The notes beneath the pieces were generated by a model that saw only the letters and a list, made by a program, of their open reading frames with translations, was not told the origin of the DNA and ran no database searches. Source: Thraustochytrium aureum (lineage: Eukaryota). From it: a stretch of 35,485 bases of DNA. The stretch's first letter is position 1; every line of letters begins with the position of its first letter. Below, in pieces: positions 5,791 through 35,474 of the stretch. Where the stretch lies: positions 101,776 to 137,260 of the forward strand of contig BLSG01000092.1 in the NCBI GenBank assembly GCA_012862495.1, written 5' to 3'. The position numbers were made by a program, and so were the translations under genes.

Positions 5791-5896
5791 CTAGCGAGCG
5801 AGCTGGCAGTAGCTACACGGATTGTGCGTTGTCTGACAGTGAGTCTGGCTCTGGATCAAGATACCGAAATCCAACCACCCTGCCTTCCTCCCTGCC

Positions 5897-6979
5897 TCAG
5901 CTGCCGCCTTCGCCCTCTGGCGCAGCACCCTGCTGCGGCTCAGCCGCGCGCGCCTTTGCCTTGGGTCGCACCTCGGACTCCTTGAGCGGCCGAACAGCCA
6001 AAAAGTTGCGCGCCTCGCGTTCCGGTTGAGGGCCCTCCTCAAACGTGTATGAAACGGCCACCAATAGGCGAGTGCCGTCGGCCGAGAAGTCGATAGAGGA
6101 AACAGAGTTGCCAAACCCTTTGAAAATGGCGGTGCGCCGGTGATTGATGTGGTCCCACACGCACACCGTCGCGTCGCAGCCCCCCGTCGCAAACGTGCCG
6201 TGCACCGGGTGAAACGCGAGGGCGTTCACGGGGTAGATTGCAGTCGCAGACCGGTGGCACTTGAACTTGAAGGGGGTGCGCCGCGCGGCTGCGGGCTCCT
6301 CGCCCGCACCCCGGGGCGCCTCAAAGTAGTCCACCACAACGCGGCCAGCGATGCAGCCAAGCGCGTACCCGGCTCCGTCGGGCGTGAAGCGCACGGCCCT
6401 GGTCTGGTACTGGAGCGAAGAGTCGCGCTCCTCGAGCGGCTTGGACATGTCGCGCACGTCGTACAAGCGCAGCGTGCGCCCGGCGTGCGCGACCAGTATC
6501 TGCCCCGTGTTGTCGCACGCGTCCATCGCAAAAACCTTGTTGGGCTCTGTCGTGGTTGCAGTGGCCCCGTCGCCGACGCGCGGGTCCCAGGTCTTGACAG
6601 CGGCGTCCCAGCCACCGGACACGACGATGCCGCGCTCCGCAAGGAACGCGACGCACCGGACAGCGTCGTTGTGGGTCCCCAGCGGCGCCGTGGTGATGCC
6701 CGCGCCCAGGTCCTGGTAGTGAACAGCGCGGTCCAACCCGCCGCTCACGCCGCGCACCTCTGCGCCCCCGACGCGCCCAAAGCAGCACGTCAGGGCCGCC
6801 GCTGCGTGGTGGTAGCTCCTGAGCGTTGCGCCCGCGTCGCAGTCCACCAAGCTCACGCCGCCGTCCCAGCAGCTCACCAGCGCTTTGCCCGAGTGTTCCC
6901 CATGCGGCTCTGGGGCGGCTCGAGCGCAGGACACGGCCTCGCCAAACGCGACCCGCGTCTCGCCGCCTGGGGCGTCCAT
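5897..6979 (-). CDS. BUB3: Mitotic checkpoint WD40 protein Bub3
   Basis: WD40 protein with SSLQYQTR, GRVVVDYF, FKFKCHR, YPVNALAFHPVHGTFATGG and SYTFEEG. These match Bub3 rather than the Rae1 YDWSKG signature. Likely ATG at 6979 gives ~360 aa. Confidence 0.88.
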   Translation of the reverse strand: MDAPGGETRVAFGEAVSCARAAPEPHGEHSGKALVSCWDGGVSLVDCDAGATLRSYHHAAAALTCCFGRVGGAEVRGVSGGLDRAVHYQDLGAGITTAPLGTHNDAVRCVAFLAERGIVVSGGWDAAVKTWDPRVGDGATATTTEPNKVFAMDACDNTGQILVAHAGRTLRLYDVRDMSKPLEERDSSLQYQTRAVRFTPDGAGYALGCIAGRVVVDYFEAPRGAGEEPAAARRTPFKFKCHRSATAIYPVNALAFHPVHGTFATGGCDATVCVWDHINHRRTAIFKGFGNSVSSIDFSADGTRLLVAVSYTFEEGPQPEREARNFLAVRPLKESEVRPKAKARAAEPQQGAAPEGEGGS

Positions 6980-7245
6980 CCCGTCGCCCGTCGCGAGGAG
7001 GAGCTCTGGCTGATCCGAAACGCGTGTTCCAGCGCCCCGAGCGCGGCCGAGCGAGCCAGCCCGCAAACCACCAGTCTTACAACCGAAAGCCGCCAGATCC
7101 CTCCCCTCCGGCGCCCAACTCCAGCAGCGCCGGGACCGCGGCCTCGAATGCGATCTGCTGCTCCTCGCCGGCCTCCTCGACCTCCGAGTCGCTCGCACTC
7201 GTCCTCTCCGGTGGTCCAAAATCATGAAACGAAGTCATCTTTGTT

Positions 7246-11500: not shown

Positions 11501-12877
11501 GACGCGGCCCCCTCGCACTTTCGCGCGGGCCTCAACAGCGGCGACAACCCCATTCCCAACCTGTACAGGTACGTCCTGCCGTGGGAGTCCGAGTTTGTGG
11601 ACTCGCAGCGCGTCTGGGCCGAGTACGCGCTCAAGCGCCAGGAGGCCAGCGCGCAAAACCGGCGCCTCACGCTGGAGGACCTCGAGGACTCGTGGGACCG
11701 CGGCGTGCCTCGCATCAACACGCTCTTCAGCAAGGACCGCCACACGCTCGCCTACGACAAGGGCTGGCGCGTGCGCACGCACTTTGAGCAGTTCCAGATC
11801 GCGCGACCCAACCCGTTCTGGTGGACCAACAACCGCATGGACGGCAAGATGTGGAACCTGAGCAACTATCGCACCGACGTCATCCAGGCCCTCGTGGCGT
11901 CGAGGGCATCCTGGAGCACACGCTCTTCAAGGGAACTGGGTTTCCCTCCTGGGAGGGGCTGTTCTGGGAGAAGNNNNNNNNNNNNNNNNNNNNNNNNNNN
12001 NNNNNNNNNNNNNNNNNNNNNNNNNNNNNNNNNNNNNNNNNNNNNNNNNNNNNNNNNNNNNNNNNNNNNNNNNNNNNNNNNNNNNNNNNNNNNNNNNNNN
12101 NNNNNNNNNNNNNNNNNNNNNNNNNNNNNNNNNNNNNNNNNNNNNNNNNNNNNNNNNNNNNNNNNNNNNNNNNNNNNNNNNNNNNNNNNNNNNNNNNNNN
12201 NNNNNNNNNNNNNNNNNNNNNNNNNNNNNNNNNNNNNNNNNNNNNNNNNNNNNNNNNNNNNNNNNNNNNNNNNNNNNNNNNNNNNNNNNNNNNNNNNNNN
12301 NNNNNNNNNNNNNNNNNNNNNNNNNNNNNNNNNNNNNNNNNNNNNNNNNNNNNNNNNNNNNNNNNNNNNNNNNNNNNNNNNNNNNNNNNNNNNNNNNNNN
12401 NNNNNNNNNNNNNNNNNNNNNNNNNNNNNNNNNNNNNNNNNNNNNNNNNNNNNNNNNNNNNNNNNNNNNNNNNNNNNNNNNNNNNNNNNNNNNNNNNNNN
12501 NNNNNNNNNNNNNNNNNNNNNNNNNNNNNNNNNNNNNNNNNNNNNNNNNNNNNNNNNNNNNNNNNNNNNNNNNNNNNNNNNNNNNNNNNNNNNNNNNNNN
12601 NNNNNNNNNCGCTGGCTGCGCTCCCTGGCGCTGGGGTTTACGATTCTCTGGAGGGGTCGATCACTTCTGTCGAGCTGCTCGAGCAGCCCGAGGAGTACGT
12701 CGGCCTCCTGGTGGACGGCAACCAGCGGTTCCTGCGCGACGACCTGATGGTCGTGCACAACAGCGGGTTCGAGACGAGCATGGTGTTCAAGAAGCTTACC
12801 AACGCGCAGCGTGCAGGGCTCAACCAGATCCCCAACCGTCGGTTCACGCTGTGGTGGTCGCCAACCATCAACCGAAG

Positions 12878-12910
<33 letters not shown>

Positions 12911-15248
12911 CCTGACGGGGATCTTTATGCACGGCAAGATCCCGACGCTCAAGATCTCGCTGATTCAGATCTTTCGTGCGCACCTGTGGCAAAAGATTCA
13001 CGAGTCGCTCACGATGGACCTGGCCCAAGTCCTCGACCAGGAGGTCGACGTGCTGGCCATCGAGACGGTGCAGAAGGAGACGATCCACCCGCGCAAGAGC
13101 TACAAGATGAACGTCTCGTGCGCCGACATCCTCCTCCTGGGGACGCACAAGTGGCAGATAAGCAAGCCCGCGCTCCTGCACGACAACCGCGACTCGTACG
13201 AAACCGAGGTGACCTCAAACAAGTTTTGGCTCGACGTCCAGCTGCGCTGGGGCGACTACGACTCGCACGACATCGAGCGGTACTGCCGCGCAAAGTACCT
13301 CGAGTACACCACGGACGGCATGACGCTCTACCCGTCGCCCACGGGCCTCCTCCTGGGCGTCGACCTGGCCTACAACCTGCACGGCGGGTACGGAAACTAT
13401 TTCCCCGGGCTCAAGCCGCTCATGCAGCAGGCGATGGCCAAGATCATGAAAGCCAACCCGGCGCTCTATGTGCTGCGCGAGCGCATCCGCAAGGGCCTCA
13501 GCCTTTTCTCCAGCGAGCCGACCGAGCCGCACCTCTCCAACCAAAACTACGGCGAGCTCTTTTCGAACCAGAACGTGTGGTTCCTGGACGACAGCTCGGT
13601 GTACCGCGTGGTGGTCCACACCACGCTCGAGGGGAACACAACGACCAAGCCAGTGAACGGCGCAATCGTTGTCTTCAACCCGCGCAGCGGGCAGCTCTTC
13701 CTCAAGGTGGTCCACACCTCGTCCTGGAGCGGGCAGAAGCGCCTGTCGCAGCTGGCGCGCTGGAAGACGGCCGAGGAGACGACGGGGCTCGTGCGCTCCC
13801 TGCCCATCGAGGAGCAGCCCAACCAGATCATCGTCACGCGCCGCGGCATGCTCGACCCGCTCGAGACGCAGATGCTCGACTTTCCCTCGATCGTGCTGCG
13901 CTGCAGCGAGCTGCAGCTCCCCTTCTCGGAGCTCTTGTCGCTGGAGCGCATCGGCGACCTTGTCCTCCGCGCCACCGACCCGCAAATGTGCCTCTTCAAC
14001 CTCTACGACGACTGGCTCTCGACCATCTCGAGCTTTACGGCTTTCTCGCGGCTCATCCTGATACTGCGCGCCATGCACGTCGACCTCGACCGGGCCAAGG
14101 TGATCTTGCGNNNNNNNNNNNNNNNNNNNNNNNNNNNNNNNNNNNNNNNNNNNNNNNNNNNNNNNNNNNNNNNNNNNNNNNNNNNNNNNNNNNNNNNNNN
14201 NNNNNNNNNNNNNNNNNNNNNNNNNNNNNNNNNNNNNNNNNNNNNNNNNNNNNNNNNNNNNNNNNNNNNNNNNNNNNNNNNNNNNNNNNNNNNNNNNNNN
14301 NNNNNNNNNNNNNNNNNNNNNNNNNNNNNNNNNNNNNNNNNNNNNNNNNNNNNNNNNNNNNNNNNNNNNNNNNNNNNNNNNNNNNNNNNNNNNNNNNNNN
14401 NNNNNNNNNNNNNNNNNNNNNNNNNNNNNNNNNNNNNNNNNNNNNNNNNNNNNNNNNNNNNNNNNNNNNNNNNNNNNNNNNNNNNNNNNNNNNNNNNNNN
14501 NNNNNNNNNNNNNNNNNNNNNNNNNNNNNNNNNNNNNNNNNNNNNNNNNNNNNNNNNNNNNNNNNNNNNNNNNNNNNNNNNNNNNNNNNNNNNNNNNNNN
14601 NNNNNNNNNNNNNNNNNNNNNNNNNNNNNNNNNNNNNNNNNNNNNNNNNNNNNNNNNNNNNNNNNNNNNNNNNNNNNNNNNNNNNNNNNNNNNNNNNNNN
14701 NNNNNNNNNNNNNNNNNNNNNNNNNNNNNNNNNNNNNNNNNNNNNNNNNNNNNNNNNNNNNNNNNNNNNNNNNNNNNNNNNNNNNNNNNNNNNNNNNNNN
14801 NNNNNNNNNNNNNNNNNNNNNNNNNNNNNNNNNNNNNNNNNNNNNNNNNNNNNNNNNNNNNNNNNNNNNNNNNNNNNNNNNNNNNNNNNNNNNNNNNNNN
14901 NNNNNNNNNNNNNNNNNNNNNNNNNNNNNNNNNNNNNNNNNNNNNNNNNNNNNNNNNNNNNNNNNNNNNNNNNNNNNNNNNNNNNNNNNNNNNNNNNNNN
15001 NNNNNNNNNNNNNNNNNNNNNNNNNNNNNNNNNNNNNNNNNNNNNNNNNNNNNNNNNNNNNNNNNNNNNNNNNNNNNNNNNNNNNTCCGCTTCCCCCGCG
15101 CGCTCGACTTTTCGCTGTCGTACGGCCACCCGCTCGAGTTTTTCCACCCGCAGCACCGCCCGCAGCACTTGCTTCCTTCCTGAGCGGCGGCAGCGGCGAC
15201 ATCGACGAGCTCGCTCCCCAAGAAGACCTCGACAACCCGCTGGCCTAG
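8545..15248 (+). CDS. PRP8: Pre-mRNA splicing factor Prp8 (N-terminus in gap, intein-containing, apparent 1-nt frameshifts)
   Basis: Collinear Prp8 signatures: [83 protein letters not shown] and C-terminal [14 protein letters not shown]. Frame breaks at ~9650, ~10826, ~11895 and ~15168 are each repaired by adding one base. Confidence 0.97.
11974..12761 (+). mobile_element. Intein at the PRP8-a site (only the last ~50 aa visible; the rest is in an N-gap)
   Basis: Non-Prp8 sequence lies between GLFWEK (ends 11973) and SGFE (starts 12762). It is in frame with the downstream extein and reads ...[35 protein letters not shown]. This matches intein blocks F/G with penultimate His, terminal Asn and +1 Ser. 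Confidence 0.92.
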
Positions 15249-18704: not shown

Positions 18705-19587
18705 TGCTGTTGAATGAAAGAATGCGCTGTTTTTTGTTGCATTTTCTTTGATCAAGATGATGGGCTGGCAGAGCGCTGTGCAGATAGATGTCCAGATGGC
18801 ACTCGTGAGCTGGTTGCAGCGGTGAGCTGGTTAGCGGGTGATAGTAACACGGCTTTCGCTCTCGTCCCGAGAATAACTGTGAATAACTGGGTAACTGTTG
18901 GAGAGTTTGAGGTGGGTCGTCACCGCACTGGACAACGGAGGATTGGAGCGCGGACGCGAATCGCAGCATCGCAGCGTACAGCGCCAGAGCGCCTACGGCA
19001 AGCAAGACAACTCCTCCTCACAGCCAGCCTGCATGTCTCTACCTACAGGTGGACCGCGTCACTCGCGGCCTTGGCGTACAAGGAGCTGAGCAGCACGCCC
19101 GCGCCGACCATGCAGCACCGCTCGCACCTTGGCCGGCGCAACCTCGCTGAGATCGTTCGCCTCGAACTCAAGCTCTAGCTAGCCAGAGAGCCACTGCAGC
19201 GCCGTCGAGCTGCAGCGCTTTCGCCGCAGGGCAGCGCCAAAGCAGAGGCTGATCGGCTCGCCAAACTTCCTCCTGTCCGGTGAGTGAACGAACGGTAACC
19301 ACCTACTGGCCTACAATCGATGGAGTAGCCCAAGACAACTTAAGACAAGAGTGCCCAGTGAAGTCTGTCAGAATCCTCAGAGCTTCTCGCGACAGTAACA
19401 GACCACCAAACGCGTTGGACGCTGGCTTGCTGTTGATCGGCGAACGGCCGCACGGGCTACAACGTTGCTGTGCTCAAGGCCTTGGCCTGCACGGCCGAGC
19501 GTGCTGCCACTCGCTGGACCTCAGTTCATGCTGATACGTGCCAAAGGCTGGCCCTGCCGTGTTGAAGAGCCGCGCCGCCGCTGCGCG

Positions 19588-21953
19588 ATGATCGGGGACG
19601 CGTCGGGTGAGCAAGCGAGGTGGGGGGCCAATGGCGAGGCTGCCAGTGTCTCGATGGACATGAAGGATGCCGAAGCGCCGGACGCTGCTGCTGGAGAGAG
19701 AAGCGGCGGGGAGTCGGCTGGCGCGCCAGGGCTGCGCGAGCTGCTCGGCATCGAAACGTGCGACGTTGTGCTCAACAACGTGGCGATGGAGAAGCTGCTC
19801 CACCCGGTGAGCCTCACGCTGGAGAGGGGCAAGGTCGTCCTTGTGACCGGCCCCAAGATCGAGAAGAAGAAAAGCGGCGCGTCTGTTCTCCTGCAAATCG
19901 TTTCGGGTCGCAAGCAAATGCACGCCGCAAGCGGGGCTGTGACAGGCGAGGCCTTCGCGCTGGGGCACAAGCACAAATTCGACTTGCTGAAGACCAGAAC
20001 ACCAATGCTCCTGAACAAGACCACGCTCTACCGGAAGACGACCCCGGCCGAGACCCTGCAAGCCGCGCTGGTCATGGACGGTCAGTGCGATGCAACGGAG
20101 AGAGTCCGCGCGTTGAAGCTTGCCGAGGACGAATTCGGGCCGATGATGCAGGACGGGTTGCTGCTCAAGAAAGGAGTCCACGTCGGAGACAAAGAGGTGG
20201 ACACAGGCGGCATCACGCGGGGACAAAATTTGTGCTGCCAGTCCATGAGAGAAATCAGCTCCCTGGACCGTCGCAAGCTCGAGTTCGTGGCTCACTTCCT
20301 CCAGGGGCGCCGACCCGACACAATGACCATGGTAGAATCCAAGGAGCTCGTGTACACCGAGATGGTCAAGTACCTCGCGTTCATTCGCGACGTTTGCACT
20401 TCTTCCCGCAGGACGAGTGCGCTAGTTCGCATCAAGGCGCTGCATGGCCGATTCCTGCATCTGTGCGACACCCTCGTCATCCTCTCGGGGCCAAGCGTGG
20501 TTTACATTGGCCCTCCGGGCGCATTTCGGCGCCATGTGGACAACGTCCTGCTGTTGCCGGTGCCGGACGCTTTTAGCGCGACCGAGTTCGTTATTGATCA
20601 CACCGACAAGATGCTACACCCGGACTGCGACCTTGATGCGATCGAGGCAAAGTTCTGGGAGACGAGCGACGCGCAAAGCATCGCGCAAGAGGCCACGGCG
20701 CGGGCTGCCCAATTGGAAACCTTGGAGCCCAACGACCCCCAAACGTTTCGAGAGGGGTTCGAGCTGTGGTGGATGCAGGCCATCGAGGTATTCTGGCGCA
20801 CGCATCGCAATTACGTGCGTACGCCGGGTCTCACTACGCTACGTTGGCTGCTCTATGTTACGTTCGCGGTGATGACGGGGATTATCGCCATGTCTCCGAG
20901 CGCGCTCGCTGCGAGCGACCGCATCTGGTTGCTCATCGCAGGCTTCGACTTTACTGTTGCAGGTAGGTGTCTCCCTTTGCTTGGCGTGGCTTGCTTGGCG
21001 TGGCTTGGCGTGGCTTGCTTGGGGGTGGCGTGGCTTGCTTGGGGTGGCGTGGCTTGCTTGGGGGTGCTTGCTTTGCTTGGAGGTGGCGTGGCTTGGCTTG
21101 GCGCGGCGTGGCTTGCTTCGCTTGCGGATGTTTTTTTCGCTCGCCCGTTGCCGTCTCTAACATCCATCTCCTCTCGCTGCGTTTCGACCGCTATGGCAGC
21201 CAGCTTATTCGGCATGTACGCACTGCGCTTGGAACGCAAGACGCTCTTCCGCGAGTGCCAAAACAGGCGCTTGTACTTGTCCGCCTGGCACGTGGGCCAC
21301 TTCCTCGGCTCTGTGCTTGGCGTGCTGTACATAAGCATCGTGCCGGGGCTCCTCTTCTTTTACTTGATGCAGCTTGACACGTTCTCGCGCTCTTGGGAAG
21401 CAGTGGCCGGGTTCGTTGCGACCTACTACTTTATGCTATTGCTCTGCGAGGCGCTCTGGACCATGGTCGCGTTTGCCATTCCGCAAAAGAAGCGGAGCAC
21501 TGTAATCGCCTCGTTCTTTGCCCTGGCGTTCGTCCTCGGCCAGGGCGTCTTCACCAAGCTGGCCAACTTGCCAGCCAACCGCTATGTGATGTTTGTCACG
21601 ATTTTCCGGCCCGCCATGACATCGTTCTTCGCCAGGCAGTTCGCTGGCGTCGAGCCCGTGTACTACCTGCCGCAGGTGTGGCAGGCCGATGTGGATGCGT
21701 GCCAGCTTCATCCGACCGACTCGAGAAACTGGACCTCGCCGCAGGTGCTGGGATGCCTCAATGTTACCGTGTGGAATGGGAAATGTCCTGTTGAGCCGGC
21801 GAACGGTCTTCGGTGGACTGGCGACGAAGTTCTGAGTGCCTTCAATTCAAGTCGAATGGCGTGCTTGCGATGGAGCTCATCACCATTCTCATCATCATCT
21901 TCATACGAATCATCACCTACTTGATCGTGCGATGGCAAATCCGCAGAATCTAG
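19588..21953 (+). CDS. ABCG-like half transporter with degenerate nucleotide-binding domain (two exons)
   Basis: NBD-then-TMD order. LLHPVSLTLERGKVVLVTGP, LCDTLVILSGPSVVYIGP and ERKTLFRECQN..Y match ABCG landmarks. Intron at 20963-21199. The last TM helix (LAMELITILIIIFIRIITYLIVRW...*, stop 21951-21953) is reached by a 1-nt shift at ~21843. Start codon is uncertain (19588 or 19654). Confidence 0.75.
20963..21199 (+). other. Spliceosomal GT-AG intron, 237 nt, filled with a (GCTTG/GCGTG)n repeat
   Basis: Donor G|GTAGGT, CTAAC branch-like motif at ~21157, pyrimidine tract, acceptor GGCAG|. Removal keeps the frame and gives FDFTVAASLFGMYALRLERK. Confidence 0.85.
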
Positions 21954-22305: not shown

Positions 22306-25300
22306 TCAACTTGTGGCCGGGGATGCTTGCGCCGCCACCAGCATCTGCACCAACCTCGTTAGCTCGGTAACTTGCTTAGTAAGGGCTTGGACGTCCTCTG
22401 CGGTTCCCTGCTCATTGGAACGCTTCTTGGCGCCAACTGCGCGCTCTTCGTCAACAACGTCACCATTCCGCTCGCTATCGGGGCGATAACTGGAGTGCAG
22501 AGCAGCCGGCTTCTTCCAATGCTTGATGCCGTCCTTGCCTGTGAGCAGCACATGCGGGTGCCAATACTCGATGTTGAAGGCGTTCTTCTTGGTTAGTTTG
22601 CCATAGACTGCGTGTCTGAGGCTCTCTTCGATTCCCTGCGTGATAATCTCCTCCCAGAGCCTGTCGCTCGCCGACCTGCAGTTTGGGTAGACGTCCGTCA
22701 CGACGGCAATGAGAAGGTTGAGCGTGATCGTGGCAAAGAGAGTAAAGAAAACCGACAGAAAGGCCCCGAGCGACCCTCCCTCGTCGACTTGTTCCATGAT
22801 GCCCCAGGTCTCCACAAAGGGCGTGAGGAAGAGCGACTCAAAGGTGGCCAACGTCGTCGAAAAGCCGGTACATTGGCCCCAAATCCGACATGGAACGTCA
22901 GGGCGAGCAAAAAGTAGGCGGAAGCCACCACCATGAGGTATATCAGAACCGCTGGGTGCGACATGGTGTTTAGCAGCGCCACGACGACAGGGCCGATGCT
23001 CGGGATCGTCCGAGCCGCATTGAGCAGCGGCAACATCGAGATGAAAAAGTAGACTGCAAAGGTGCGGCGCTCTACCTCCAAGAGTCGGTGCACGTGGCTG
23101 AGCTTGGTGACCTCGCTCGTCACGTAGTCGCGGGCCACGCTTCGTGTGACCTCGTAGATATACATGTCCAGCACGAGGATACCCACGAGCAACAGCGCGG
23201 TGAGCCAATCGGCAGGTTTGCCGCGGTTGCGGTTCCTTCTGGAGAGCCAGCCGCGAAGCTTGGAAAAGCAAAACGCCATCACGATCACAGTGAGGACGAG
23301 CTGAAACGTGCGCGAGGGGGGGAAGCGCCCATACCCGAGCCGAAAGGGCAAAACCCTCACCGTAATCGTGGGCACCCCAACAAATGACGAGACAAAGTTG
23401 ACCTGGGCCACCCCGTACACCTCAAGGAAGGGGTTGTAGAGGTTGAACTCCAGGTCGAGTTGCTGCACGCCGCCGTTTTCAAGCAAGCTCTGCGAAAAGG
23501 CGTCCATATCGGTCAAGTTTGACGCTCGCTTCACCACAAACGTGGTCACGTTTGGGCTGAGGTCCATGTCCACCTCTGCGTCAACGTCGGCGTAGTCGTC
23601 GCGAAGTGCGTAGTGCGTGTGCGCCTCGAGCGTCAGGCCGCCAAACACCAGGTTGCGCCCCAGGAGTGTCGTGCGGTTGTGCTTGAGCGCGAATTTGCCC
23701 TCCACCAAGCCGTGCTCTAGCCAGCCGAGAAACGAAGCAGGGTCCTCGATCGCCTGTGTGGACTCGCTCAGGTGGTTTGACATGCGCTCGGCCCATTCGC
23801 GCTCTGCGGCGAGGTTGTAGTCGGGCGCGAGCTGGACCACAAAGATAAAGCTCAGGATCATGGCGAGCAAGAGCGAGGTTTCGCGCACAAACATTTTGAT
23901 CGCGCACTTTCTGCGCCAGGCGCGCACTTTGGCGCTCTCATTGAGGACGGCAACCATGCGCGAGGCATGCGTGCGCTCCAACTCGGCCTTTTCAAGCAGC
24001 TCATCGAGTTCACGCGTGCTTGCGTGGACCTGCTTGTCGTCGTTGCGGTGAAACCCGAAAAAGTTGGTCAGCCTGCTGTCAGCCCTTCCCATGAGCTTTA
24101 GCCGCTTGCCGAGGATGTGCCCCCCCCCTCGGTGCTTTGCGTTGCCTTGGCTGAGGCCCGCCTTGGCCTCACCAGGCCCATCGAGTGCGCCGGGCGGGGC
24201 GGCCTGGTGGCCGCCAGAGGCAGCCTCGTTCACGTCAACGCCCTCCTCGTCCGTAAAGTACGCCAGGCCAGATCCTTGGCGCCCAGACGCAAAGCGCGGG
24301 GCATTTCCGGGNNNNNNNNNNNNNNNNNNNNNNNNNNNNNNNNNNNNNNNNNNNNNNNNNNNNNNNNNNNNNNNNNNNNNNNNNNNNNNNNNNNNNNNNN
24401 NNNNNNNNNNNNNNNNNNNNNNNNNNNNNNNNNNNNNNNNNNNNNNNNNNNNNNNNNNNNNNNNNNNNNNNNNNNNNNNNNNNNNNNNNNNNNNNNNNNN
24501 NNNNNNNNNNNNNNNNNNNNNNNNNNNNNNNNNNNNNNNNNNNNNNNNNNNNNNNNNNNNNNNNNNNNNNNNNNNNNNNNNNNNNNNNNNNNNNNGATCC
24601 ATGTCGAAGAGGACGCGTCGGCTGATCTGCTCCTGCAGGTATTGCACCTTCTCCGTCAGCTCGATATGCCTGAACAGAGCGCGAACGTAGGGACTAAACA
24701 TGCTGCCCCGCGTCCGGTTCCCGTCGGCCTGCATTGGGTTTCCGCCGTGCTTGATGAGCATCGCCACAACAGCGATATTGTTGGAGCGCACTGCCAGCGA
24801 GAGGGGCGAATAGTCGCCCAACTTGAGGTCGCTCAGGTTGTCGGTGACGTGGCGCGCTGCTTCGGAGGCGCCAATTTGCGTCCCGTCCGAGTTGGCGCTC
24901 ATGAGACTAAAGCGCGGCGTGCTGGCGTCGCTGCGACCCGCCGAGCCGCGCGGGGGACCGAGGCGTCTCAGAGAGCCCCGTTGCTGGAGCCGTGAGCTGG
25001 GCGTTTGAAAGGTCCAGCGGATTGATCTTGGCAAAGGTCCGCTTGGAGACCGAAGCCTGGACGAAACTGCGAAGCAAGCCGATGGGGCGGATCCCAGGCG
25101 CTGGGTTTGACTTTGACGCGTCGCGCGGGCTCGTCCTGCTTCGCGGCTCCTCGGTGGGCGAGAATGCCTCGCCCTTGCTTAGAAACCCGAGAATGTTCGA
25201 GTTGAGGTCGACAATCTCGTTCGTCTGGTGCTCCTGCTGCAGCCGCTCGGTGAGGTATCTGCACACCTCGTCGTGGCCTTGCATTGCCGCATGGTGGAGC

Positions 25301-28300
25301 GGCGTGAACCCCATATTGTCGTTGACGAGGATGCGCGCAGAGTTTTGCACGAGTTCCTGGCAGAGACGAAGGTTGCCCAGGTAGGCGCACATAGAGAGCG
25401 GAGTGAGCCCGTTGATGTCGCGGATCTCCACGTTGGCCCCCAGGTGAAGCAGCCGGCGCGCAGTCTCAAAGTGGCCGCGCTTGATTGCGATGTACAGCGG
25501 AGTGTGCCCAAACTCGTCGATCGCGTTCAAGTTGGCGCCAGCGTGCATGCTTGTCCGCTTGCTGAGGAGGATGTTGACAGAGTTGATCTGCCCGCGGCGC
25601 ACAGCCGCAAAGAGGTACTGGTTGAACAATTTGCGCCGGATGTGCTTGAGCTGCCGGAAGGCAAAGTTGCGCTTTGCTTGGCCATCAAGGGAGGTTCGCC
25701 GCGGCGCTACTGCCAAAAGCTGCGAAGGGTCCTCGTCGGGCTCCTCCGCGATCGTCTCCCGTGCACGCCGAGGCTGCAGCTGGGTGCCACGGCCTTGCCC
25801 CGAGCGGGCCGGTTCCAGCGCCGAGTCCACTGTCTGCAGTTGGGGCGACTTGGGCGGGGGCGGGATCACCTCCCATCCAAAGTGCAGGATAGCTTTCAGC
25901 GTCTCTTCTGCGCCGAGCAAGAGCTGCGCCTTTTCATGCTTGTCCAAGACGTCGTACGGAACGAGCGACGAATTTAGCTTGAGGCCCTTTTTGATGTTGC
26001 GCGCCGGCGCGTACCTGAACCCTTGGCGGATCTTCTCGCTCGCCCACACCTCGTGGCTGTTTGCCGCCAACATGTTGACAAGTTTGGTCAGCTCGGGAGG
26101 AACGGGCACGGCAGACGTTTGGATAGTGGTGCACTCTGGGAGCTCGGGGCGCCAAGCGATCTCGGCGTACTTTGCCCCTGAGGGGCCTCCGCGGCCCTCT
26201 TCGCCCCCGCTCGGCCCGCTGCCGCTCCGCCGCCGTGGCGTCGAGCTGTTGTTAGTGTTGGCCATGAGCATAGCCACGACGCTCTCCCGCTTTTGCTTGT
26301 TGAGGTCAGCGACCTTGGTCAGCAGACTGGTCGGCGAAGCCTCGCCGCGGTCCTTTTGCTCCTCTTCCAAGACAAGGGGGCTTGCTGGAGCAGGGACGCC
26401 AGGGAGTGCGCCTAGCGGCGGGGGCGACATCGAGGCGCGCTGGCCGGGCCGTTGCAGCTCGTAGCCGAGCGCCACGATCACCTTGATGGTCTCGCTGGCC
26501 ATGTCGAGGTTGTACTTGGTGCCCTCGTACGAAAGCGAGCTGAACGGGAGCAAATGCGGGTGGAGCTTGGCCTCTTCGTCCTTGTCGCGCCCGTACGCCC
26601 ACCCTTCGTCAATCTTGGACTTGGCCCACACATTGTGATTGTTTCGAGCGATCATCGTGCACAACTGCGCCACGCTGTTCGCGATGACCACCGCCGAGGT
26701 GCTGATCGGATTGGGCAGAAACCGGTACCCCTCGAGCTCGCGCGTGTCGGTTGCAGGCGTTGCGCAGCACCTGTCCCGGTTGCACTCGCAGTGCGTGTTG
26801 ATGCTCCCGCAAAACGTCCAGCCCTTGTCAGGGTTGTGCTCGCGGTCCAGCGGCGAGAGGTGCTTGCGACACGACTGCTCGCCATGGCACCGGTCCTTGC
26901 AGACGAGACAGACGCTTTGGCCGCAAAACTCGCACTTGTACAAGAACTGCGTCACCGTGTTGTTGTAGCTCGCAAAAGAAAACGTGCACGTCTCGGGGTG
27001 CTCCATGCGCTGCGTCATTTCCACGAGGGTGTCGTCGATCGTGATACCGTTCTCGTCGGCAAAGTTGAGGATGCTCTCGCACGCCTCCACGTCGCCCATC
27101 AATCAAGGCGTGCAAGANNNNNNNNNNNNNNNNNNNNNNNNNNNNNNNNNNNNNNNNNNNNNNNNNNNNNNNNNNNNNNNNNNNNNNNNNNNNNNNNNNN
27201 NNNNNNNNNNNNNNNNNNNNNNNNNNNNNNNNNNNNNNNNNNNNNNNNNNNNNNNNNNNNNNNNNNNNNNNNNNNNNNNNNNNNNNNNNNNNNNNNNNNN
27301 NNNNNNNNNNNNNNNNNNNNNNNNNNNNNNNNNNNNNNNNNNNNNNNNNNNNNNNNNNNNNNNNNNNNNNNNNNNNNNNNNNNNNNNNNNNNNNNNNNNN
27401 NNNAGGTCGAGCTCGGTGTCGTTGGTGGTCCGCACGGGGAACGTTGACGCGTATTTTGTGCCGCAAGCCCTTTTTTCAGGACCGCGCTCAGCAAGAGCTT
27501 TTTCTTGTGCCCGTTGGAGACGGGCTGGTGGCTGTCCAGCACTGCGCGAACCACTTCGGACTTGCCATTGAAGGCAGCAAGGTGCAGGAATGTGACGCCA
27601 GAGTTGGTGATGGAGTTGATCGGAAGCTGCGCCACGTTTTCGTACCCGTCGAGGCAGCGGCTCCAGTCCACGCCTGCAAAGCAACCCGACTTTGCCGCAA
27701 AGTGCAGGCTGTTCCAGGCCTCGCTATCGCGCTGTGCGAGCAGGGCGAGGCGGTCTTCAACGTCCCGCTGCGAGCGAAGAATGACCTCGACTGTGGCGGC
27801 GTGCTCTTGCGAGTCGCTCATGCAGGCAAACATCACGGCGGTCTTTCCGTACGTCGACTGGGTCTGAAGCAGCGACATTGAGGGCTCGTAGGAAAGCAGC
27901 ATTTCGACGCAGTCGCAGTCTCCGTCTCGCGCGGCGTACATGAGTGCCGTTTTTCGAGACTGGCGCGTCTGGCCGTACAAGAGCTCGCGCTGCTGCTCTT
28001 CCGTGGCGGCATCTAGAATCATCTCGATCATCTGCAGGCGCACGTGCCGTTTCTTGCACGAAATAGCCAGAATGACGGCGTTCTCGTCCTTTTTCGTTCG
28101 CGCGCAAAGGTCGAGGGCGCCTTTGGCATGCTCAAGGAGCAGCTCGAGGATGTCCACATTGCCAGTCTCGCAGCAGGCGTGCAAGGCGTTTTTGCAGCTC
28201 CATGAGCACAGCTCGTTGATCGAGCCCTGCGCGATGAGGGCGTCCAGCTTGGCCCGGTCAAACGTCATCGCGGAGAACACGAGCGACTCGTACAGGTCGT

Positions 28301-29063
28301 CGACGTCTTCGAAGATCGCGTCTGTCCAGCCAACTGCGCGCCGTGTGAGCTGCAGGCTGCCGTTGATGGTCAGTTTGCGGTCCTCCAACGAGCCGATTTC
28401 GGGCCCGTCCGAGCGCACGACGTGGATCTTCTCAAACTCGAATTTCTTCAGCGCGCCCGCGACGCTGTCGTCTTGGATGCCACGGCAGCCGTCCTCCACG
28501 AAAAAGACTTCGACCCCTTGCATCAGGATCTTGGCGTCCAGCACGGTGTATTGGACGCAAAAGTCTGTGGCCAGTCCGACGGCGTAGATTTCGGTGACTT
28601 TGTTCTCCTCCAGAAGGTCGCGCATCTCCGTGAGCTGCGAGCTCCCGTTGTCCTTGAATACTGAATAGCTGTCGCGTTGCGGGTTGCAGCCCGCGTAGGT
28701 CCAGATGTCGCTGGTTTCGGTCAGCAGGTCTTTGTGCAGCTCGGCGCCGCGAGTCCCTTGCACGCAGTGGTCGGGCCACATGATCTGTGCGTCGCCGGTC
28801 GTAGGGAGGTGGATAACCTGGAACACGGCTGACCCGGGGTTGTTGGTCCTGAACGAGCAGTGGTTGCACGGGTGCCAGTCCAAACACATGTAAATGTAGT
28901 CGAACGCCTTGCCGCGCAGCCGGTTGATCACGGGGATGATCGCCTCTGCGTTCGGCACGGCCAGGCTGCCGTCAATAAAGTCATTCTGCACGTCGATGAT
29001 CAGCAGGGCGCGTACAGGCTCCCTCTGCTGGGCTCCTTTGCCGTTCTGTGGCAAGCCGGCCAT
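22306..29063 (-). CDS. Large multidomain cation channel: nicotinamidase-like + ankyrin repeats + UBR-like Zn finger + 2 RyR domains + ankyrin repeats + polycystin (PKD2/TRPP-like) channel; PKDRR-like
   Basis: PncA motifs IIDVQNDF, LDWHP, WPDHCVQGT and GLATDFCV. Ankyrins (KTALMYAA, HTPLYIA, FTPLHHAA). Cys/His finger (YKCEFC..VCLVCKDRCH..HCEC). Two RyR domains (IARNNHNVWAKSKIDEGWAYG..HPHLLPF; LAANSHEVWASEKIRQGFRY..LVPYDVL). PKD-type FNLYNP and S6 LNLLIAVVTDVY. Joined across two gaps and about four apparent frameshifts, so the single-gene model is inferred. Confidence 0.8.
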
Positions 29064-29803: not shown

Positions 29804-31774
29804 TCAGACCTCCCCCAAATTCAACGTGCGCCCCGACGCGCCGGATACAGGCCGAAATGTGAAGCGAGGCGTCACGAAACGAAAAATCACGCTCGAGAAA
29901 CGGTTGTACCGCGATGACGGTGGGGGGGCAGGGCTTTCGCGCGGAGACCCCGGCCACGCAACAGGGTTTGCCGCAGGCGCGCGATGCTGATTGTCACGGC
30001 CGTACCCGCTACCTTCAACCTGCCCAGGTGCCGCACTACGCCCGAGCGTCGAGGATGAGGTAATGGACATGCTCGAAAAGGAGTTGTGCGACATGCGCCG
30101 TGCCACCATGACCGCGGTGGGTGGTGGAGCGAGTCCATCGGCAAACTTGCCTTTGCCACCCCCGTAGGGGTTGGAGGAAGCGAGCTCCAGCGCCTCCAGC
30201 GCGGCCATCTCCTTCATTCTTTTCCGCGTGACCAGCAGAACAGCCCCAGCAAGGATGACGCAGACGCCGCCGATGCTCCCCAATCCGATGTACAGATAGT
30301 TGAGGTCATCGCTGCTTCCTTCCGGTTTGGGGTCAGTGTCTGTACCGCCGCCGCCACCAGCATCTCCGCCATCTCCGCCGCTGCCGCCGCCTCCTGGCTC
30401 GCTCGGTCCTGGCGTTGGCTGCAACGGGGAAACTGTCGGTGAAGCGGTCGGCCTTGACGTTATGGGCAGGCGGCTGACAAACATTGACACCACTCCAGGT
30501 GCCTCTGGCGCGTTCTCTCCCTCCCACATCGAAATGCAGCCGACGCCCGAAACGCATGCCAAATCGACGTCAAGCGACTTGAGACCGTTGTGGCCGCCGA
30601 AAGCCTGGGGAGTGCTCCAATTGAGACCTTTGTTCGCCGAAACCGAGAAGGCAGGGGCGTATCCGCCATTCGAGTCGATTTCCCACACCAGCACGCAGTA
30701 CGTATTGTCAAAGCAGGCGATTGCAGACTCGTCCTCGTGAAGTCCGCCAAGCTGAAGCGCGAGGCGTTGCAGCTGCCCGAACGTCTGGCCCCCGTCGGCA
30801 GAATGAGCATACTCGACAAACGGGCGTGACGCTTGGCCAGAAGCAATGTCTTTTGTCCTAGCATCGCATGAAACCGTGCACGCGGACCCATCTTCCACGC
30901 AAGCCACGTCAACCTCGTCGGCCAAGAGCAGGGTGCCGCTTCCTTGCCCACTGAGGTGTTCTGCTGAGCGCTTCAAAGCAGTTGGAGTCGAAAATGTTGC
31001 GCCACGATCTGTTGACCGCACTGTGGCCACGAAAGTCGTGCCATCGCCCGAGTTTGAGGCGTCGCCGTTCACGACAATACCAATCAAACACACAGCGCCG
31101 TACTCGGCGCAAGCAATGCGCGCCTTGTGCACGGCGAAACCGCCGCCTTGCGTCGTCACAGGCTGCGGGGCCACAGCGAAGGTTCGAGCACCGTTGACGG
31201 AGCGCAGCAGAAGCAGCCTCTTGTCCGGAAGCGTTGTGCTCACGACGACGAGGCATGAGAATGCGTCTTTCTGGGGGCCCACCACGCCAGGAATAGCAAA
31301 ACAGGCGATATCGGGCATCCAGAACTTGCCGTGGTCGGCGGCAGCAACGGGAGCGCGCTCTGGGGCGGTCCACTGCTTGCCTGCATTCACCGAGCGCGCC
31401 GTGAATATTTCCTGGTCGTTCTTTGGGCTCCACACGGCGCCGCAGAGTCGCTCGGTGGCGGTCTCAAAGCACGACAGTTTTGGCAACTCGTTGTACACGA
31501 CGTCTGAGGCGAGCACGGAGGCAGCCGACCAGGTCACGCCAAAGTCGTTCGAGGTGCCAAACATGATGTTGCGGTTCGTGGACGATTCCGAAGCCTTCTC
31601 AAACAGCGCGACGCATTCCCCGTTGGAAAAGCAATGGAGCACGGGCTCCTCCAACGTGAGCGTGTTGGGGCCCTCGCGAAACACAATATCGCTCCCCGAG
31701 AAGCCTTCCACGGACCGCCAGAGCCCCGTGGCAGCCACAATCGCGCCAACCAGCGATGCGGCCCGAGGCCTCAT
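29804..31774 (-). CDS. Type I membrane protein with Cys-rich BNR/Asp-box repeats (sialidase-like propeller)
   Basis: Signal peptide MRPRAASLVGAIVAATGLW. Asp boxes SNDFGVTW, SVNAGKQW, SVNGARTF, STDRGATF, SADGGQTF and SANKGLNW. Pro/Thr stalk PTASPTVSP, TM helix YLYIGLGSIGGVCVILAGAVLLV, then a cytoplasmic tail. Confidence 0.85.
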   Translation of the reverse strand: MRPRAASLVGAIVAATGLWRSVEGFSGSDIVFREGPNTLTLEEPVLHCFSNGECVALFEKASESSTNRNIMFGTSNDFGVTWSAASVLASDVVYNELPKLSCFETATERLCGAVWSPKNDQEIFTARSVNAGKQWTAPERAPVAAADHGKFWMPDIACFAIPGVVGPQKDAFSCLVVVSTTLPDKRLLLLRSVNGARTFAVAPQPVTTQGGGFAVHKARIACAEYGAVCLIGIVVNGDASNSGDGTTFVATVRSTDRGATFSTPTALKRSAEHLSGQGSGTLLLADEVDVACVEDGSACTVSCDARTKDIASGQASRPFVEYAHSADGGQTFGQLQRLALQLGGLHEDESAIACFDNTYCVLVWEIDSNGGYAPAFSVSANKGLNWSTPQAFGGHNGLKSLDVDLACVSGVGCISMWEGENAPEAPGVVSMFVSRLPITSRPTASPTVSPLQPTPGPSEPGGGGSGGDGGDAGGGGGTDTDPKPEGSSDDLNYLYIGLGSIGGVCVILAGAVLLVTRKRMKEMAALEALELASSNPYGGGKGKFADGLAPPPTAVMVARRMSHNSFSSMSITSSSTLGRSAAPGQVEGSGYGRDNQHRAPAANPVAWPGSPRESPAPPPSSRYNRFSSVIFRFVTPRFTFRPVSGASGRTLNLGEV

Positions 31775-32852
31775 CGTCAGGTGCCTTCTGCTCTCGCGTC
31801 CGCGCCTTCCGCCTCGGATGCGCGACGGCGCGGCCAGAGACGAAAGGGAACTGCCTGTGTGGCCTACGCGTTCGGCGACCGCGCACACCCTGCATGCGCT
31901 TGGCGTGGGCGAGTGCCGTCGGCCCATGCCAGCCACTGGCATGCCAAAGAGAGAGAGCTGCGGCGTCGTGAAATCTCAAACGAGCGCCCTCTGGCACTCG
32001 CTGGTTGCTGGGCGAGGCGTGGAGGCCTGCCCGAGTAGCCGCGTTGTCGGTCGGTCCTGCCTTGCGGGTCGAAATGAAGGAGCGTGGGCCTTCTGGAAAG
32101 CAGGACGAGGTGCCACCGCGTACGGTACTCTGCCANNNNNNNNNNNNNNNNNNNNNNNNNNNNNNNNNNNNNNNNNNNNNNNNNNNNNNNNNNNNNNNNN
32201 NNNNNNNNNNNNNNNNNNNNNNNNNNNNNNNNNNNNNNNNNNNNNNNNNNNNNNNNNNNNNNNNNNNNNNNNNNNNNNNNNNNNNNNNNNNNNNNNNNNN
32301 NNNNNNNNNNNNNNNNNNNNNNNNNNNNNNNNNNNNNNNNNNNNNNNNNNNNNNNNNNNNNNNNNNNNNNNNNNNNNNNNNNNNNNNNNNNNNNNNNNNA
32401 GTAGGAGCCTACTCGAGCTACTCTCGAGTAAGCAGCTGAGTATGTCCGCCAGAAGACCTGGGTGCTCCGTTCACGGTTGGTCTGGCGTGCGACCAATTTG
32501 TGCACGTGGACGCGTTGATTGATTGAGCACCGGTCCAAAAGACTGCAGGCTCGGAGCAACCGGTTTCGCCGTCAATGAACCGTTCAGTGTGGATTTGGCG
32601 TTTCCACGTCGCGAGGCCGAATGGCACGGGGAGTCAACACTGGCCGAAACGAGCTTCGCGCAAGACGCACTGGTTTGTGTTTCTGGTCGGCTCGGCACGC
32701 TGGCGAAGAAGCGAGCGACGAACTTCAAGAAAGAAGAAAAGCAAACCAAACGACACGCGATTTACCACCTTCTGTTCTGATTCTCATGAGGCTGAGGTCG
32801 AGCCCCTTCGCGGTTCGCAGGAACGACTTTCGCTCGCGACGAAGAAAACAGT

Positions 32853-33070
32853 ACGACAACCATCGCAACTCGTTGTGCGCGACGCCAGAGACGAGCACGG
32901 AGGCAGCTGACCAGGACACGCCAAAGTCGCTCGCGGGACCAAACATGAAATACAGTTCGCACGCTGTACCGAGTCCTCTCTTTTTGCAGCCCCCGCGACG
33001 CCGTGAGCGCGCTGAGCCCGCGCGAAGCACTTTCTCGCTTCCCGTCTACGGACCGCCAGAGCTGCATGGC
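32853..33070 (-). pseudogene. Decayed partial duplicate of the 5' region of the adjacent BNR gene
   Basis: 32853-32948 aligns without gaps to 31471-31566 (80/96 by hand count; MFGPASDFGVSWSAASVL vs MFGTSNDFGVTWSAASVL). ACGGACCGCCAGAGC recurs at ~33048 and ~31710, but in a different frame and with shorter spacing. Confidence 0.75.
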
Positions 33071-34203
33071 TGCGACGATAATGCAGCAAAGGTCCCTTGG
33101 CAGTGGCTCCCCCGTCGCTCCACCATGCTTGCTCTAGCGACCCCAGTTTTATGGGTTTGACAATCGCGAGGCAATCGAGGACTGCCTTTCGCTTATTCGA
33201 TGTGTCAGGTTCGAGCTGCGGCCCGCGTCGGGCGAACGACAAGAGAAAAGCAGGTATTCGTGCTCGACGCGTCCCTGCGGTAGCCGAGGTTGAGATTGTC
33301 AGCCTGCAAAACCCGCAGCTTGCCTTCTCGTTGTTGGAAGCGAGCATCCCAATCCTGCCGCAGCATCTTCTCATCGCCCATGCAAGCNNNNNNNNNNNNN
33401 NNNNNNNNNNNNNNNNNNNNNNNNNNNNNNNNNNNNNNNNNNNNNNNNNNNNNNNNNNNNNNNNNNNNNNNNNNNNNNNNNNNNNNNNNNNNNNNNNNNN
33501 NNNNNNNNNNNNNNNNNNNNNNNNNNNNNNNNNNNNNNNNNNNNNNNNNNNNNNNNNNNNNNNNNNNNNNNNNNNNNNNNNNNNNNNNNNNNNNNNNNNN
33601 NNNNNNNNNNNNNNNNNNNNNNNNNNNNNNNNNNNNNNNNNNNNNNNNNNNNNNNNNNNNNNNNNNNNNNNNNNNNNNNNNNNNNNNNNNNNNNNNNNNN
33701 NNNNNNNNNNNNNNNNNNNNNNNNNNNNNNNNNNNNNNNNNNNNNNNNNNNNNNNNNNNNNNNNNNNNNNNNNNNNNNNNNNNNNNNNNNNNNNNNNNNN
33801 NNNNNNNNNNNNNNNNNNNNNNNNNNNNNNNNNNNNNNNNNNNNNNNNNNNNNNNNNNNNNNNNNNNNNNNNNNNNNNNNNNNNNNNNNNNNNNNNNNNN
33901 NNNNNNNNNNNNNNNNNNNNNNNNNNNNNNNNNNNNNNNNNNNNNNNNNNNNNNNNNNNNNNNNNNNNNNNNNNNNNNNNNNNNNNNNNNNNNNNNNNNN
34001 NNNNNNNNNNNNNNNNNNNNNNNNNNNNNNNNNNNNNNNNNNNNNNNNNNNNNNNNNNNNNNNNNNNNNNNNNNNNNNNNNNNNNNNNNNNNNNNNNNNN
34101 NNNNNNNNNNNNNNNNNNNNNNNNNNNNNNNNNNNNNNNNNNNNNNNNNNNNNNNNNNNNNNNNNNNNNNNNNNNNNNNNNNNNNNNNNNNNNNNNNNNN
34201 NNN

Positions 34204-35474
34204 GTCCTGCAAACCCAGTTCGCAGGGTAATTGCTTTGCGTTCGTCGGACGGGGCGAGAACGTTCACGCTCGTCACAGAGCTTGCAAGAGACGCGCCAGG
34301 GACCAGCGGCCCCACTAACCCACGCGTGTCTTGCACGAAGAATGGGTCGACCTGTGTGGCAGTATTTATGGCGGGAGAGTCGGACGGCAGCTGGGTGACG
34401 CAAACAAGCCAGTCGTCAGATGGCGGGCGCACCTGGAGTGGGCTGGCCAAGCTCGCCCCGTCGCTCCTGTCGCAAAGCCGCAAAGCCGCAAACAGGATCG
34501 AGTACTGGAACGCTCGGGTCAGCTGCTTCGCGACCACGTGCAATGTTCTTGCAGAGTCTTGGGTCTGGGTGCAGGAACAAGGCGACTGGTTCAGTCCGTG
34601 GATGGAAACCGCACGATCGACGGATGGAGGCCGCAGTTGGTCGACCTACACTGTTTTGCACCAGCCGACCGGTTTGGTGGAGGTGACGGACTTGGAGTGC
34701 TTCGGCTCGTCATTCTGCGCCGGGATCTGGATCGGGACGTCCAGCGTGGAGCGACGAGCGTATTTTGCCACCTCCACCTCGCTTGGGGAAACATGGAGTG
34801 CTGTTGCAGCCGTCACAGACATGCCGGTCGTCGACAGTTTCCAGACAAACTACGTCGAGCCGAGCGTGAGCTGCTCTGTGGGCTACGGTTGCCTCGTGGC
34901 GCTGCAGCGCATTTTGCCGTCACCCAACTCGTTTTGGATCGCGAAGTACGTTTTCGTTTCTGGGACTCCGACGCCGGACCCAGAAGTCTCGCCGACGAAG
35001 GCACCGACGCAACTTCCGAGCCCTGCCGGTGCCTCCATCGCGCCAACACCGGCACCTCGCGCCTCCGAAGAAAACTTTGACTCTGCCGCGCCAACGACGG
35101 CTTCCGAGAGCGACAGCTCGACGCTCGTCATTGCCAGCGGCGGCGCAGTCGGCGGCGCAGTGGTGCTTTTGGCTCTCGCCGTCACGACCAAGCGCCACTG
35201 CCGCGACAAGTCGAACGATTTGGGCGTTCTCCCGCACGGCCGAATCGCCCTCAGTACGGACAAGAGCGCGTCTCAAACGCGCTCTGCAGAGCCTGCTGAC
35301 GATGGTGCGGTCAGCGCCGACGTCCCATACGCGGTGCCGCTGGCGCAGCAATCACCAACGGCCAGCCAGGTCTGGGCAAAGTCACCACTCATTTTTCTGG
35401 CCCGCGCTGCTGCGACAGGGTTTGCAACCCGCCCGGTGAGCAGGGGCACGACTTTGTCAGGCCTCGACGTGTAG
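34204..35474 (+). CDS. Second BNR/Asp-box repeat membrane protein (5' part in gap)
   Basis: Asp boxes SSDGARTF, SSDGGRTW, STDGGRSW and STSLGETW, paired Cys per blade, PTKAPT/PTPAP stalk and TM segment VIASGGAVGGAVVLLALAV. Same architecture as 29804-31774. Confidence 0.8.

Follow-up and report, generated by a model that had tools for sequence, protein, structure and literature searches.

A gene on the minus strand of a 35,485-nucleotide stretch of Thraustochytrium aureum DNA (hereafter the window) encodes a predicted ion channel of the polycystin type that opens with a nicotinamidase-like domain, and this domain has an alanine where nicotinamidases carry their catalytic lysine. A reading of the sequence alone had proposed that the domain may bind nicotinamide or nicotinate, turn it over poorly and act as a gating sensor. 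The question raised by the locus is whether such a domain still works as an enzyme, binds a ligand on behalf of the channel or serves the protein in some other way. Nicotinamide is a by-product common to NAD+-consuming signalling enzymes.

Architecture of the channel gene

The frame starts at the ATG at 29061–29063 on the minus strand, and the nicotinamidase (PncA)-like domain and the channel form one reading frame (Table 1). Four orthologues of 1959–2148 aa align with the window gene collinearly from end to end. The nearest orthologue that carries a species name, GBG29206.1, is from Hondaea fermentalgiana, a thraustochytrid, and reaches 76% within the domain, which fits a labyrinthulomycete origin of the window. 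In the window the gene is broken by four 1-nt differences and two N gaps. The frameshifts coincide with four 1-nt differences in the public run X1 (22863, 24952, 27436 and 27471), which also supplies 108 letters across the N gap at 27104–27403, equal to the 36 residues that the orthologue has there, and the frame breaks look like assembly errors. The Prp8 gene of the window (8590–14110, plus strand) is likewise spread over several frames with frameshifts and N gaps, probably through assembly errors of the same kind. Extra X1 contigs match 28954–29003 and 25285–25321 and diverge on both sides; they possibly come from a paralogue or from a relative in the sample.

Table 1 Features of the channel gene, with positions in the window.
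Feature	Position	Strand	Basis
Whole channel gene: PncA-like domain, ankyrins, Cys-rich finger, RyR ×2, ankyrins, polycystin-type pore (predicted)	22306..29063	−	collinear orthologues
Nicotinamidase (PncA)-like domain, residues about 14–222	28398..29024	−	Pfam Isochorismatase, E 1.9e-19
Asp24, triad catalytic Asp (GAC), kept	28992..28994	−	alignment
Cys60, specific to the family, where most controls have the Thr/Ser that hydrogen-bonds the catalytic Asp	28884..28886	−	alignment
Asp62 (28878–28880) and His64 (28872–28874), metal ligands, kept	28872..28880	−	sequence only
Trp96 (ring cage) and His99 (metal ligand, 28767–28769), kept	28767..28778	−	alignment
Ala124 (GCG) in place of the catalytic Lys	28692..28694	−	alignment, run X1 contig
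Phe168 (ring cage) and Cys169 (nucleophile, TGC, 28557–28559), kept	28557..28562	−	alignment
First ankyrin-repeat block, approximate limits	27534..28196	−	Pfam Ank_2, E 1.9e-26; helical repeats, pLDDT about 90
Cys/His-rich finger, conserved, probably zinc-binding	26722..27030	−	Cys pattern kept in five orthologues
RyR domain 1	26452..26721	−	Pfam RyR, 2 stretches, E 6.6e-47
RyR domain 2, approximate limits	25860..26125	−	Pfam RyR
Second ankyrin-repeat block, approximate limits	25243..25605	−	Pfam Ank_2, E 1.4e-22
Six-helix polycystin/TRP-type membrane region (predicted), approximate limits	22686..23880	−	assigned via orthologues

The membrane region gave no Pfam match on the window's own pieces and no meaningful phmmer match in the PDB. 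In the orthologues, PKD_channel is matched with E 1.1e-6 in P0004 and with E 3.1e-14, plus Polycystin_dom, in P0206, and a PKD channel domain is seen in P0004, P0135, P0206 and P0300; from these weak profile matches a polycystin-type pore is predicted, with the RyR pair ~900 residues ahead of it. The Cys/His-rich finger, for which the profile matches are also weak (IBR, E 0.009; zf-UBR, E 0.26 in P0300), probably binds zinc. A single-chain model of the domain with the ankyrins, built from 14 sequences, reached a pTM of 0.65.

Elsewhere the window encodes a kinase with armadillo repeats (3–2066, plus), a protein with WW and B-box domains in two frames (4640–5794, plus), a WD40 protein that we take to be Bub3/Rae1-like (5897–7225, minus), a membrane protein that looks ABCG-like by eye, with a low-complexity insert and no Pfam match (19465–21924, plus), and tandem or diverging copies of BNR/Asp-box repeat proteins that are predicted to be secreted and single-pass (29804–31942, minus; 32575–33400, minus; 34236–35474, plus), with a decayed-looking partial copy near 32600–33000.

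A nicotinamidase fold without the catalytic lysine

Pfam, phmmer, AlphaFold2 and Foldseek all place an isochorismatase-like fold with a nicotinamidase lid at the N-terminus of the channel. The domain matches 2wt9 with E 2.2e-44 (phmmer), and its AlphaFold2 model (pLDDT 93.9, input of 86 sequences) resembles 2wta with TM scores of 0.83/0.89 (Foldseek) and A. baumanii PncA and Drosophila Naam with 0.83–0.85. With the PncA/Pnc1/Naam group (PF00857; 2wt9, 9u8m, 2h0r and 3pl1) it shares the fold, the Asp-His-His metal site, the Phe/Trp/Phe cage, the catalytic Asp and Cys and the cis-peptide motif; unlike that group, it is without the catalytic Lys, has Cys in place of Thr/Ser beside the Asp and is fused to the N-terminus of a channel of roughly 2000 residues. 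The triad Asp and triad Cys lie at exactly the coordinates that the sequence-only reading gave, and the metal ligands that it had described as kept are present.

PncA holds its substrate with a metal on the pyridine nitrogen and a cage around the ring; the Cys attacks the amide, and the Lys bridges the two aspartates and stabilises the thiolate (excerpt of PMC6271260). Ala124 falls in the column of this triad Lys in phmmer alignments to 2wt9, 9u8m, 29iv, 1ilw and 2h0r, without gaps in the first three, so that the proposed comparison with PncA/Pnc1 confirms the claimed absence of the lysine at the GCG codon. In the AlphaFold2 model Ala124 ends the strand 120–124, and Lys96 of the Mycobacterium tuberculosis enzyme (MtPncA) likewise stands at a strand end (excerpt of PMC3025910). 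Judged by this motif, the domain is not an active nicotinamidase of the PncA/Pnc1 type. A second change in the catalytic network had gone unnoticed: Cys60 occupies the place of the Thr/Ser that hydrogen-bonds the catalytic Asp, which is Thr47 in MtPncA (same excerpt).

Lysine loss across the channel family

Relatives were collected by three word-based searches and one full scan, the latter covering the best 150 of 7385 matches and thereby missing more degenerate members. Among the matches listed, eleven proteins have ankyrin and RyR domains behind the nicotinamidase-like domain (the window protein, P0002–P0006, P0132, P0135, P0152, P0206 and P0299; P0132 is partial and ends in RyR 2), and the catalytic Lys is found in 0/11 of them, replaced by Ala in eight (hereafter the Ala-type channels) and by Ser, Ile and Thr in one each. 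In the databases, members are entered as 'ankyrin repeat domain-containing protein 1' or as 'ryanodine receptor 3'. P0300 was rejected as a channel without the domain: it is the same channel, its sequence begins behind the domain, and by eye it starts with an apparent domain tail, although a domain match is lacking. A protein atlas queried with the domain returned ordinary nicotinamidase clusters only, and the finger-RyR query gave no usable match there.

The lysine is present in 119/119 stand-alone nicotinamidase matches, in 118/119 single-domain representatives of at most 450 residues and in 79/79 other metagenome loci, the 80th locus (L001) being the family member P0006. The set of single-domain representatives left out clade members and multi-domain and longer matches, among which P0201, P0237 and P0134 are also without the Lys. 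Wherever the metal site is intact in the clade, the position of the Lys holds Ala (12/12: the eight channels, P0012, P0174, P0007 and P0008). In a tree of 50 domains, computed without the columns of Asp24, Cys60, Lys124 and Cys169 and without the near-copies P0004 and P0270, a single branch sets the 16 Lys-less rows apart from the others (97/91, with a bootstrap that had not fully settled); in a quick tree of 103 rows, 17 Lys-less rows likewise lie on one branch (SH-aLRT 96). Going by these comparisons, the lysine loss is real, ancient, specific and clade-wide, and a single loss at the base of the clade is the simplest reading.

Two proteins of this clade, P0007 (1120 aa) and P0008 (1061 aa), carry a NUDT9-like ADP-ribose pyrophosphatase domain (E 5e-14 to 1q33) in front of the Lys-less domain. 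P0008 also has a cNMP-binding domain; in P0007 a channel-like linker follows the domain, and P0007 may belong as one exon to a larger channel gene. A scan for a contig carrying P0007 found none.

Nicotinamidase domains are also joined to other partners. P0139 (848 aa, Rigifila ramosa) and P0010 (1129 aa, Salpingoeca urceolata) are TRPV-like channels with ankyrin and Ion_trans domains and a C-terminal nicotinamidase, in which P0139 has an intact Asp-Lys-Cys triad and P0010 keeps the Lys and has lost the Cys. Both domains fall outside the Lys-less clade in both trees, and the two look like fusions independent of the window family; P0139 would be a candidate channel-enzyme. Unrelated Lys-less domains occur in P0237 (fused to PDZ domains, Thr at the Lys position), P0201 (fused to a protein kinase, Met), P0230 (stand-alone, Met) and P0134, which consists of four degenerate nicotinamidase repeats.

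Conservation of the pocket and degenerate paralogues

To describe what surrounds the missing lysine, we used 33 columns that are at least 90% identical in the controls, of which controls keep a median of 32. The window domain keeps 32/33, the Lys being the sole loss; P0002–P0005 and P0135 also keep 32, P0006 keeps 30 and P0132 keeps 29. All eight Ala-type channels have intact metal ligands, Ser70, cage (Phe29, Trp96 and Phe/Tyr168) and cis-peptide motif, so that the pocket is intact in 8/11 channel members. Ten columns are Lys or Arg in at least 6/8 Ala-type channels, and none of them is a pocket position as mapped from MtPncA, a check made on sequence positions rather than distances; P0007/P0008 lack two of these residues, Arg72 and Lys137. 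Among the five orthologues, the domain is the best conserved of eight regions (mean pairwise 70%, against 33–62% elsewhere), and by comparison with the window it ranks first or second in the Ala-type members. In the two closest orthologues, ankyrin block 2 stands above the domain (85/83% against 78/75%).

P0006 has Thr (codon ACA) in place of the nucleophilic Cys and keeps all metal and cage residues, which suggests that at least one lineage can do without hydrolysis; P0277 likewise has Thr. In contrast to the Ala-type channels, the triad and metal site are largely destroyed in P0152, P0206 and P0299, which keep 16–21 of the 33 columns. These three proteins have kept the domain nonetheless, so that the fold either has a ligand-independent role too or decays slowly. 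In P0152 and P0299 it is the least or second-least conserved of seven regions by comparison with the window (38%, against a range of 30–62%); high conservation in the Ala-type channels and low conservation here suggest that constraint follows the pocket and not the fold. The domain of P0299 is invisible to Pfam and was found by the family profile (E 1e-39). The fragments P0155, P0207 and P0270 contain the domain likewise without the triad and metal ligands.

A sensor, an enzyme or a structural part

The reading that we prefer, with a probability of about 0.55, is that the domain is a binding-competent pseudo-nicotinamidase that serves as a cytoplasmic sensor for nicotinamide, nicotinate or NAD+ and regulates the predicted channel. 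The pocket would bind a metal and hold the ligand through its pyridine nitrogen, as in PncA, with little or no hydrolysis, and the binding signal would reach the pore, to open or to close it, by way of the ankyrin and RyR domains. As a candidate ligand, NAD+ stands level with nicotinamide and nicotinate. The contrast in the lysine (0/11 against 118/119), the 32 of 33 columns kept, the alanine in 12/12 and the top rank in conservation count for this reading.

Published mutants bear on it from both sides. That the Lys is important for PncA turnover, as had been claimed, agrees with the loss of all or most activity in nicotinamidase Lys mutants: MtPncA K96Q has no detectable activity (excerpt of PMC3025910) and Oceanobacillus iheyensis K104A retains 1.45% (PMC3581539); folding is impaired in both mutants. 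In Entamoeba ERM-BP, K150A abolishes turnover and keeps NAD+ binding, whereas C198A loses both (excerpt of PMC6207428). The natural pattern of Lys out and Cys in is what ERM-BP predicts for binding without catalysis, and from it we infer a metal-dependent sensor. The fusion to a NUDT9-like ADP-ribose domain within the same clade ties the clade to NAD+ breakdown products, and, with the TRPV channels that nicotinamide gates (excerpt of PMC5064019) from a cytoplasmic site (excerpt of PMC12808645), it supports the ligand class of the candidate sensor.

Several observations count against a sensor. The published Lys mutants are partly unfolded and K104A retains some activity, the three paralogues keep the fold without the pocket, ankyrin block 2 exceeds the domain in conservation in the two closest orthologues, and the profile matches behind the predicted pore are weak. 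A Lys-to-Ala change in yeast Pnc1, which is said to leave measurable activity, counts on the same side. In Nematostella TRPM2, moreover, gating is not coupled to the catalytic cycle that the fused domain runs (excerpt of PMC6461439).

Retention of Asp24 in 8/8 and Cys169 in 7/8 Ala-type channels would be equally expected of a slow but real enzyme, in which Asp, Cys and metal turn nicotinamide over slowly or hold a long-lived thioester, and which would act as a timer or a local sink by the pore. The intact oxyanion-hole motif, the roughly 1.5% activity of K104A and the computed role of the Lys as stabilising rather than acid/base (excerpt of PMC6271260) agree with such an enzyme. It is opposed by P0006, where the pocket outlives the nucleophile, by the absence of turnover in MtPncA K96Q and ERM-BP K150A and by the replacement of the Thr/Ser partner of the catalytic Asp as well, and we regard it as unlikely.

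Retention of the domain in P0152, P0206 and P0299 after destruction of the site would be explained if it were a structural or assembly module only, packed on the ankyrin or RyR domains or between subunits, with pocket residues that serve folding; active-site mutations do destabilise MtPncA (excerpt of PMC3025910). The same source reports limited folding effects of Cys138Ala, His51Ala and Phe13Leu, residues whose equivalents are kept here, and the conservation of the domain drops where the pocket is lost and ranks first or second where it is present, which makes a purely structural role rather improbable.

We give still less credit to a remodelled site, in which the cavity that the missing Lys leaves between Asp24, Cys60, Asp62 and Cys169 would take up a cation, an amine or a second metal, or the cysteines would sense oxidation; its consequence, that activity or gating would depend on ammonium, metal or redox state and not on nicotinamide alone, seems just as doubtful. 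The loss of the Lys does coincide with the change at position 60, which is Thr/Ser in 115/119 controls and Cys in 0/119, as against Cys in 7/8 and Ala in 1/8 Ala-type channels, and an intact pocket always goes with Ala at the Lys position. Yet position 60 is Ala rather than Cys in P0135 and P0174. Cys126, present in 7/8 Ala-type channels and in 2% of the single-domain representatives, is weakened as a special feature by its frequency in the first control set (44/119).

That Ala124 is a sequencing or assembly error, or the mark of a decaying pseudogene, as the four frameshifts and two gaps might suggest, is refuted by the run X1 contig, which has the same codon without the frameshifts, and by the channel relatives, seven of which have Ala at this position, one of them (P0005) from a transcriptome assembly. 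The X1 sequence, which consists of contigs and not reads, shows 0 differences from the window over 28535–28769; X1 is possibly the source of the window itself, and the comparative evidence is the stronger for that reason. Runs X2–X4 gave small shares, and an X6 contig over 28641–28710 is divergent. The earlier claim that the Lys-to-Ala change is not an error thus holds.

Relation to known systems

The sensor reading fared unevenly against known systems: the lysine loss, the kept pocket and the mutant literature support it as first proposed, whereas the homology to oomycete PKDRR channels assumed with it fails in the architecture. PKDRRs share the polycystin-type pore (predicted here) and the tandem RyR pair; they are described as oomycete-only and have the pair near the C-terminus (PMC4820453 and PMC7399828, in excerpt), an order seen in Pythium P0301. 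In the window channel the pair precedes the pore, and ankyrins, a Cys-rich finger and a PncA-like domain are present as well, so that membership of the PKDRRs was rejected. The RyR pair is 35% identical to that of P0301 and is the only part that aligns by BLAST; the pores of the window family match P0301 weakly (26 bits).

By inference, the channel would work on the principle of the inactive NUDT9-H domain of vertebrate TRPM2. That domain, too, is an enzyme-derived cytoplasmic domain with a degenerate catalytic motif on a TRP-superfamily channel, its catalysis was lost by mutation of the motif, and its ligand comes from NAD+ metabolism (excerpt of PMC6461439). The window family has the corresponding combination of an enzyme-derived domain and a predicted TRP-type pore in one chain, with a degenerate catalytic motif and a kept pocket. 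The fold, ligand, terminus and channel subfamily differ, and gating by the domain is only a proposal here. Membership of the TRPM2 family proper was rejected, as full-length members gave no Pfam matches to MHR or a C-terminal NUDT9-H.

Entamoeba ERM-BP is likewise a eukaryotic regulator with an NAD+-binding nicotinamidase domain, whose engineered Lys-to-Ala form binds without turnover (excerpt of PMC6207428); it is a transcription factor with an active triad, whereas the window family lost its Lys in nature and would act through a pore. The nicotinamide-gated TRPV channels Nanchung-Inactive and OSM-9/OCR-4 also have nicotinamide as the ligand of a cytoplasmic domain, but in these systems it is the ankyrin domain that binds it, and an active nicotinamidase exists apart from the channel. 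All nicotinamide-gated channels that we found in print bind nicotinamide in an ankyrin pocket.

Implications

A polycystin-type channel family with an N-terminal, Lys-less nicotinamidase domain is apparently undescribed: a literature search, largely outside subscription journals, found no description of this architecture among the matches listed, and the body of PMC7399828, together with one of its supplementary files, mentions neither nicotinamidase nor isochorismatase. In that paper RyRs and oomycete PKDRRs are stated to be the only eukaryotic channels with RyR domains; the present family speaks against this statement, as it puts RyR domains on a predicted polycystin-type pore outside oomycetes and in a different order.

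At less than even odds, and as a tentative generalisation, undescribed polycystin-type cation channels of protists would use a pseudo-nicotinamidase as a ligand-binding domain and be gated by nicotinamide or NAD+, their fully dead paralogues being ligand-blind subunits, and nicotinamidase folds, fused independently to TRPV-like channels (Rigifila and Salpingoeca) and to NUDT9-like, kinase and PDZ domains, would form a recurring eukaryotic read-out of NAD+ consumption. The soluble domain of 210 residues could be a scaffold for a nicotinamide or NAD+ biosensor. If the sensor reading is true, the domain would be a counterpart of the ADP-ribose sensor of TRPM2, and protists would have a second way of coupling ion flux to NAD+ turnover.
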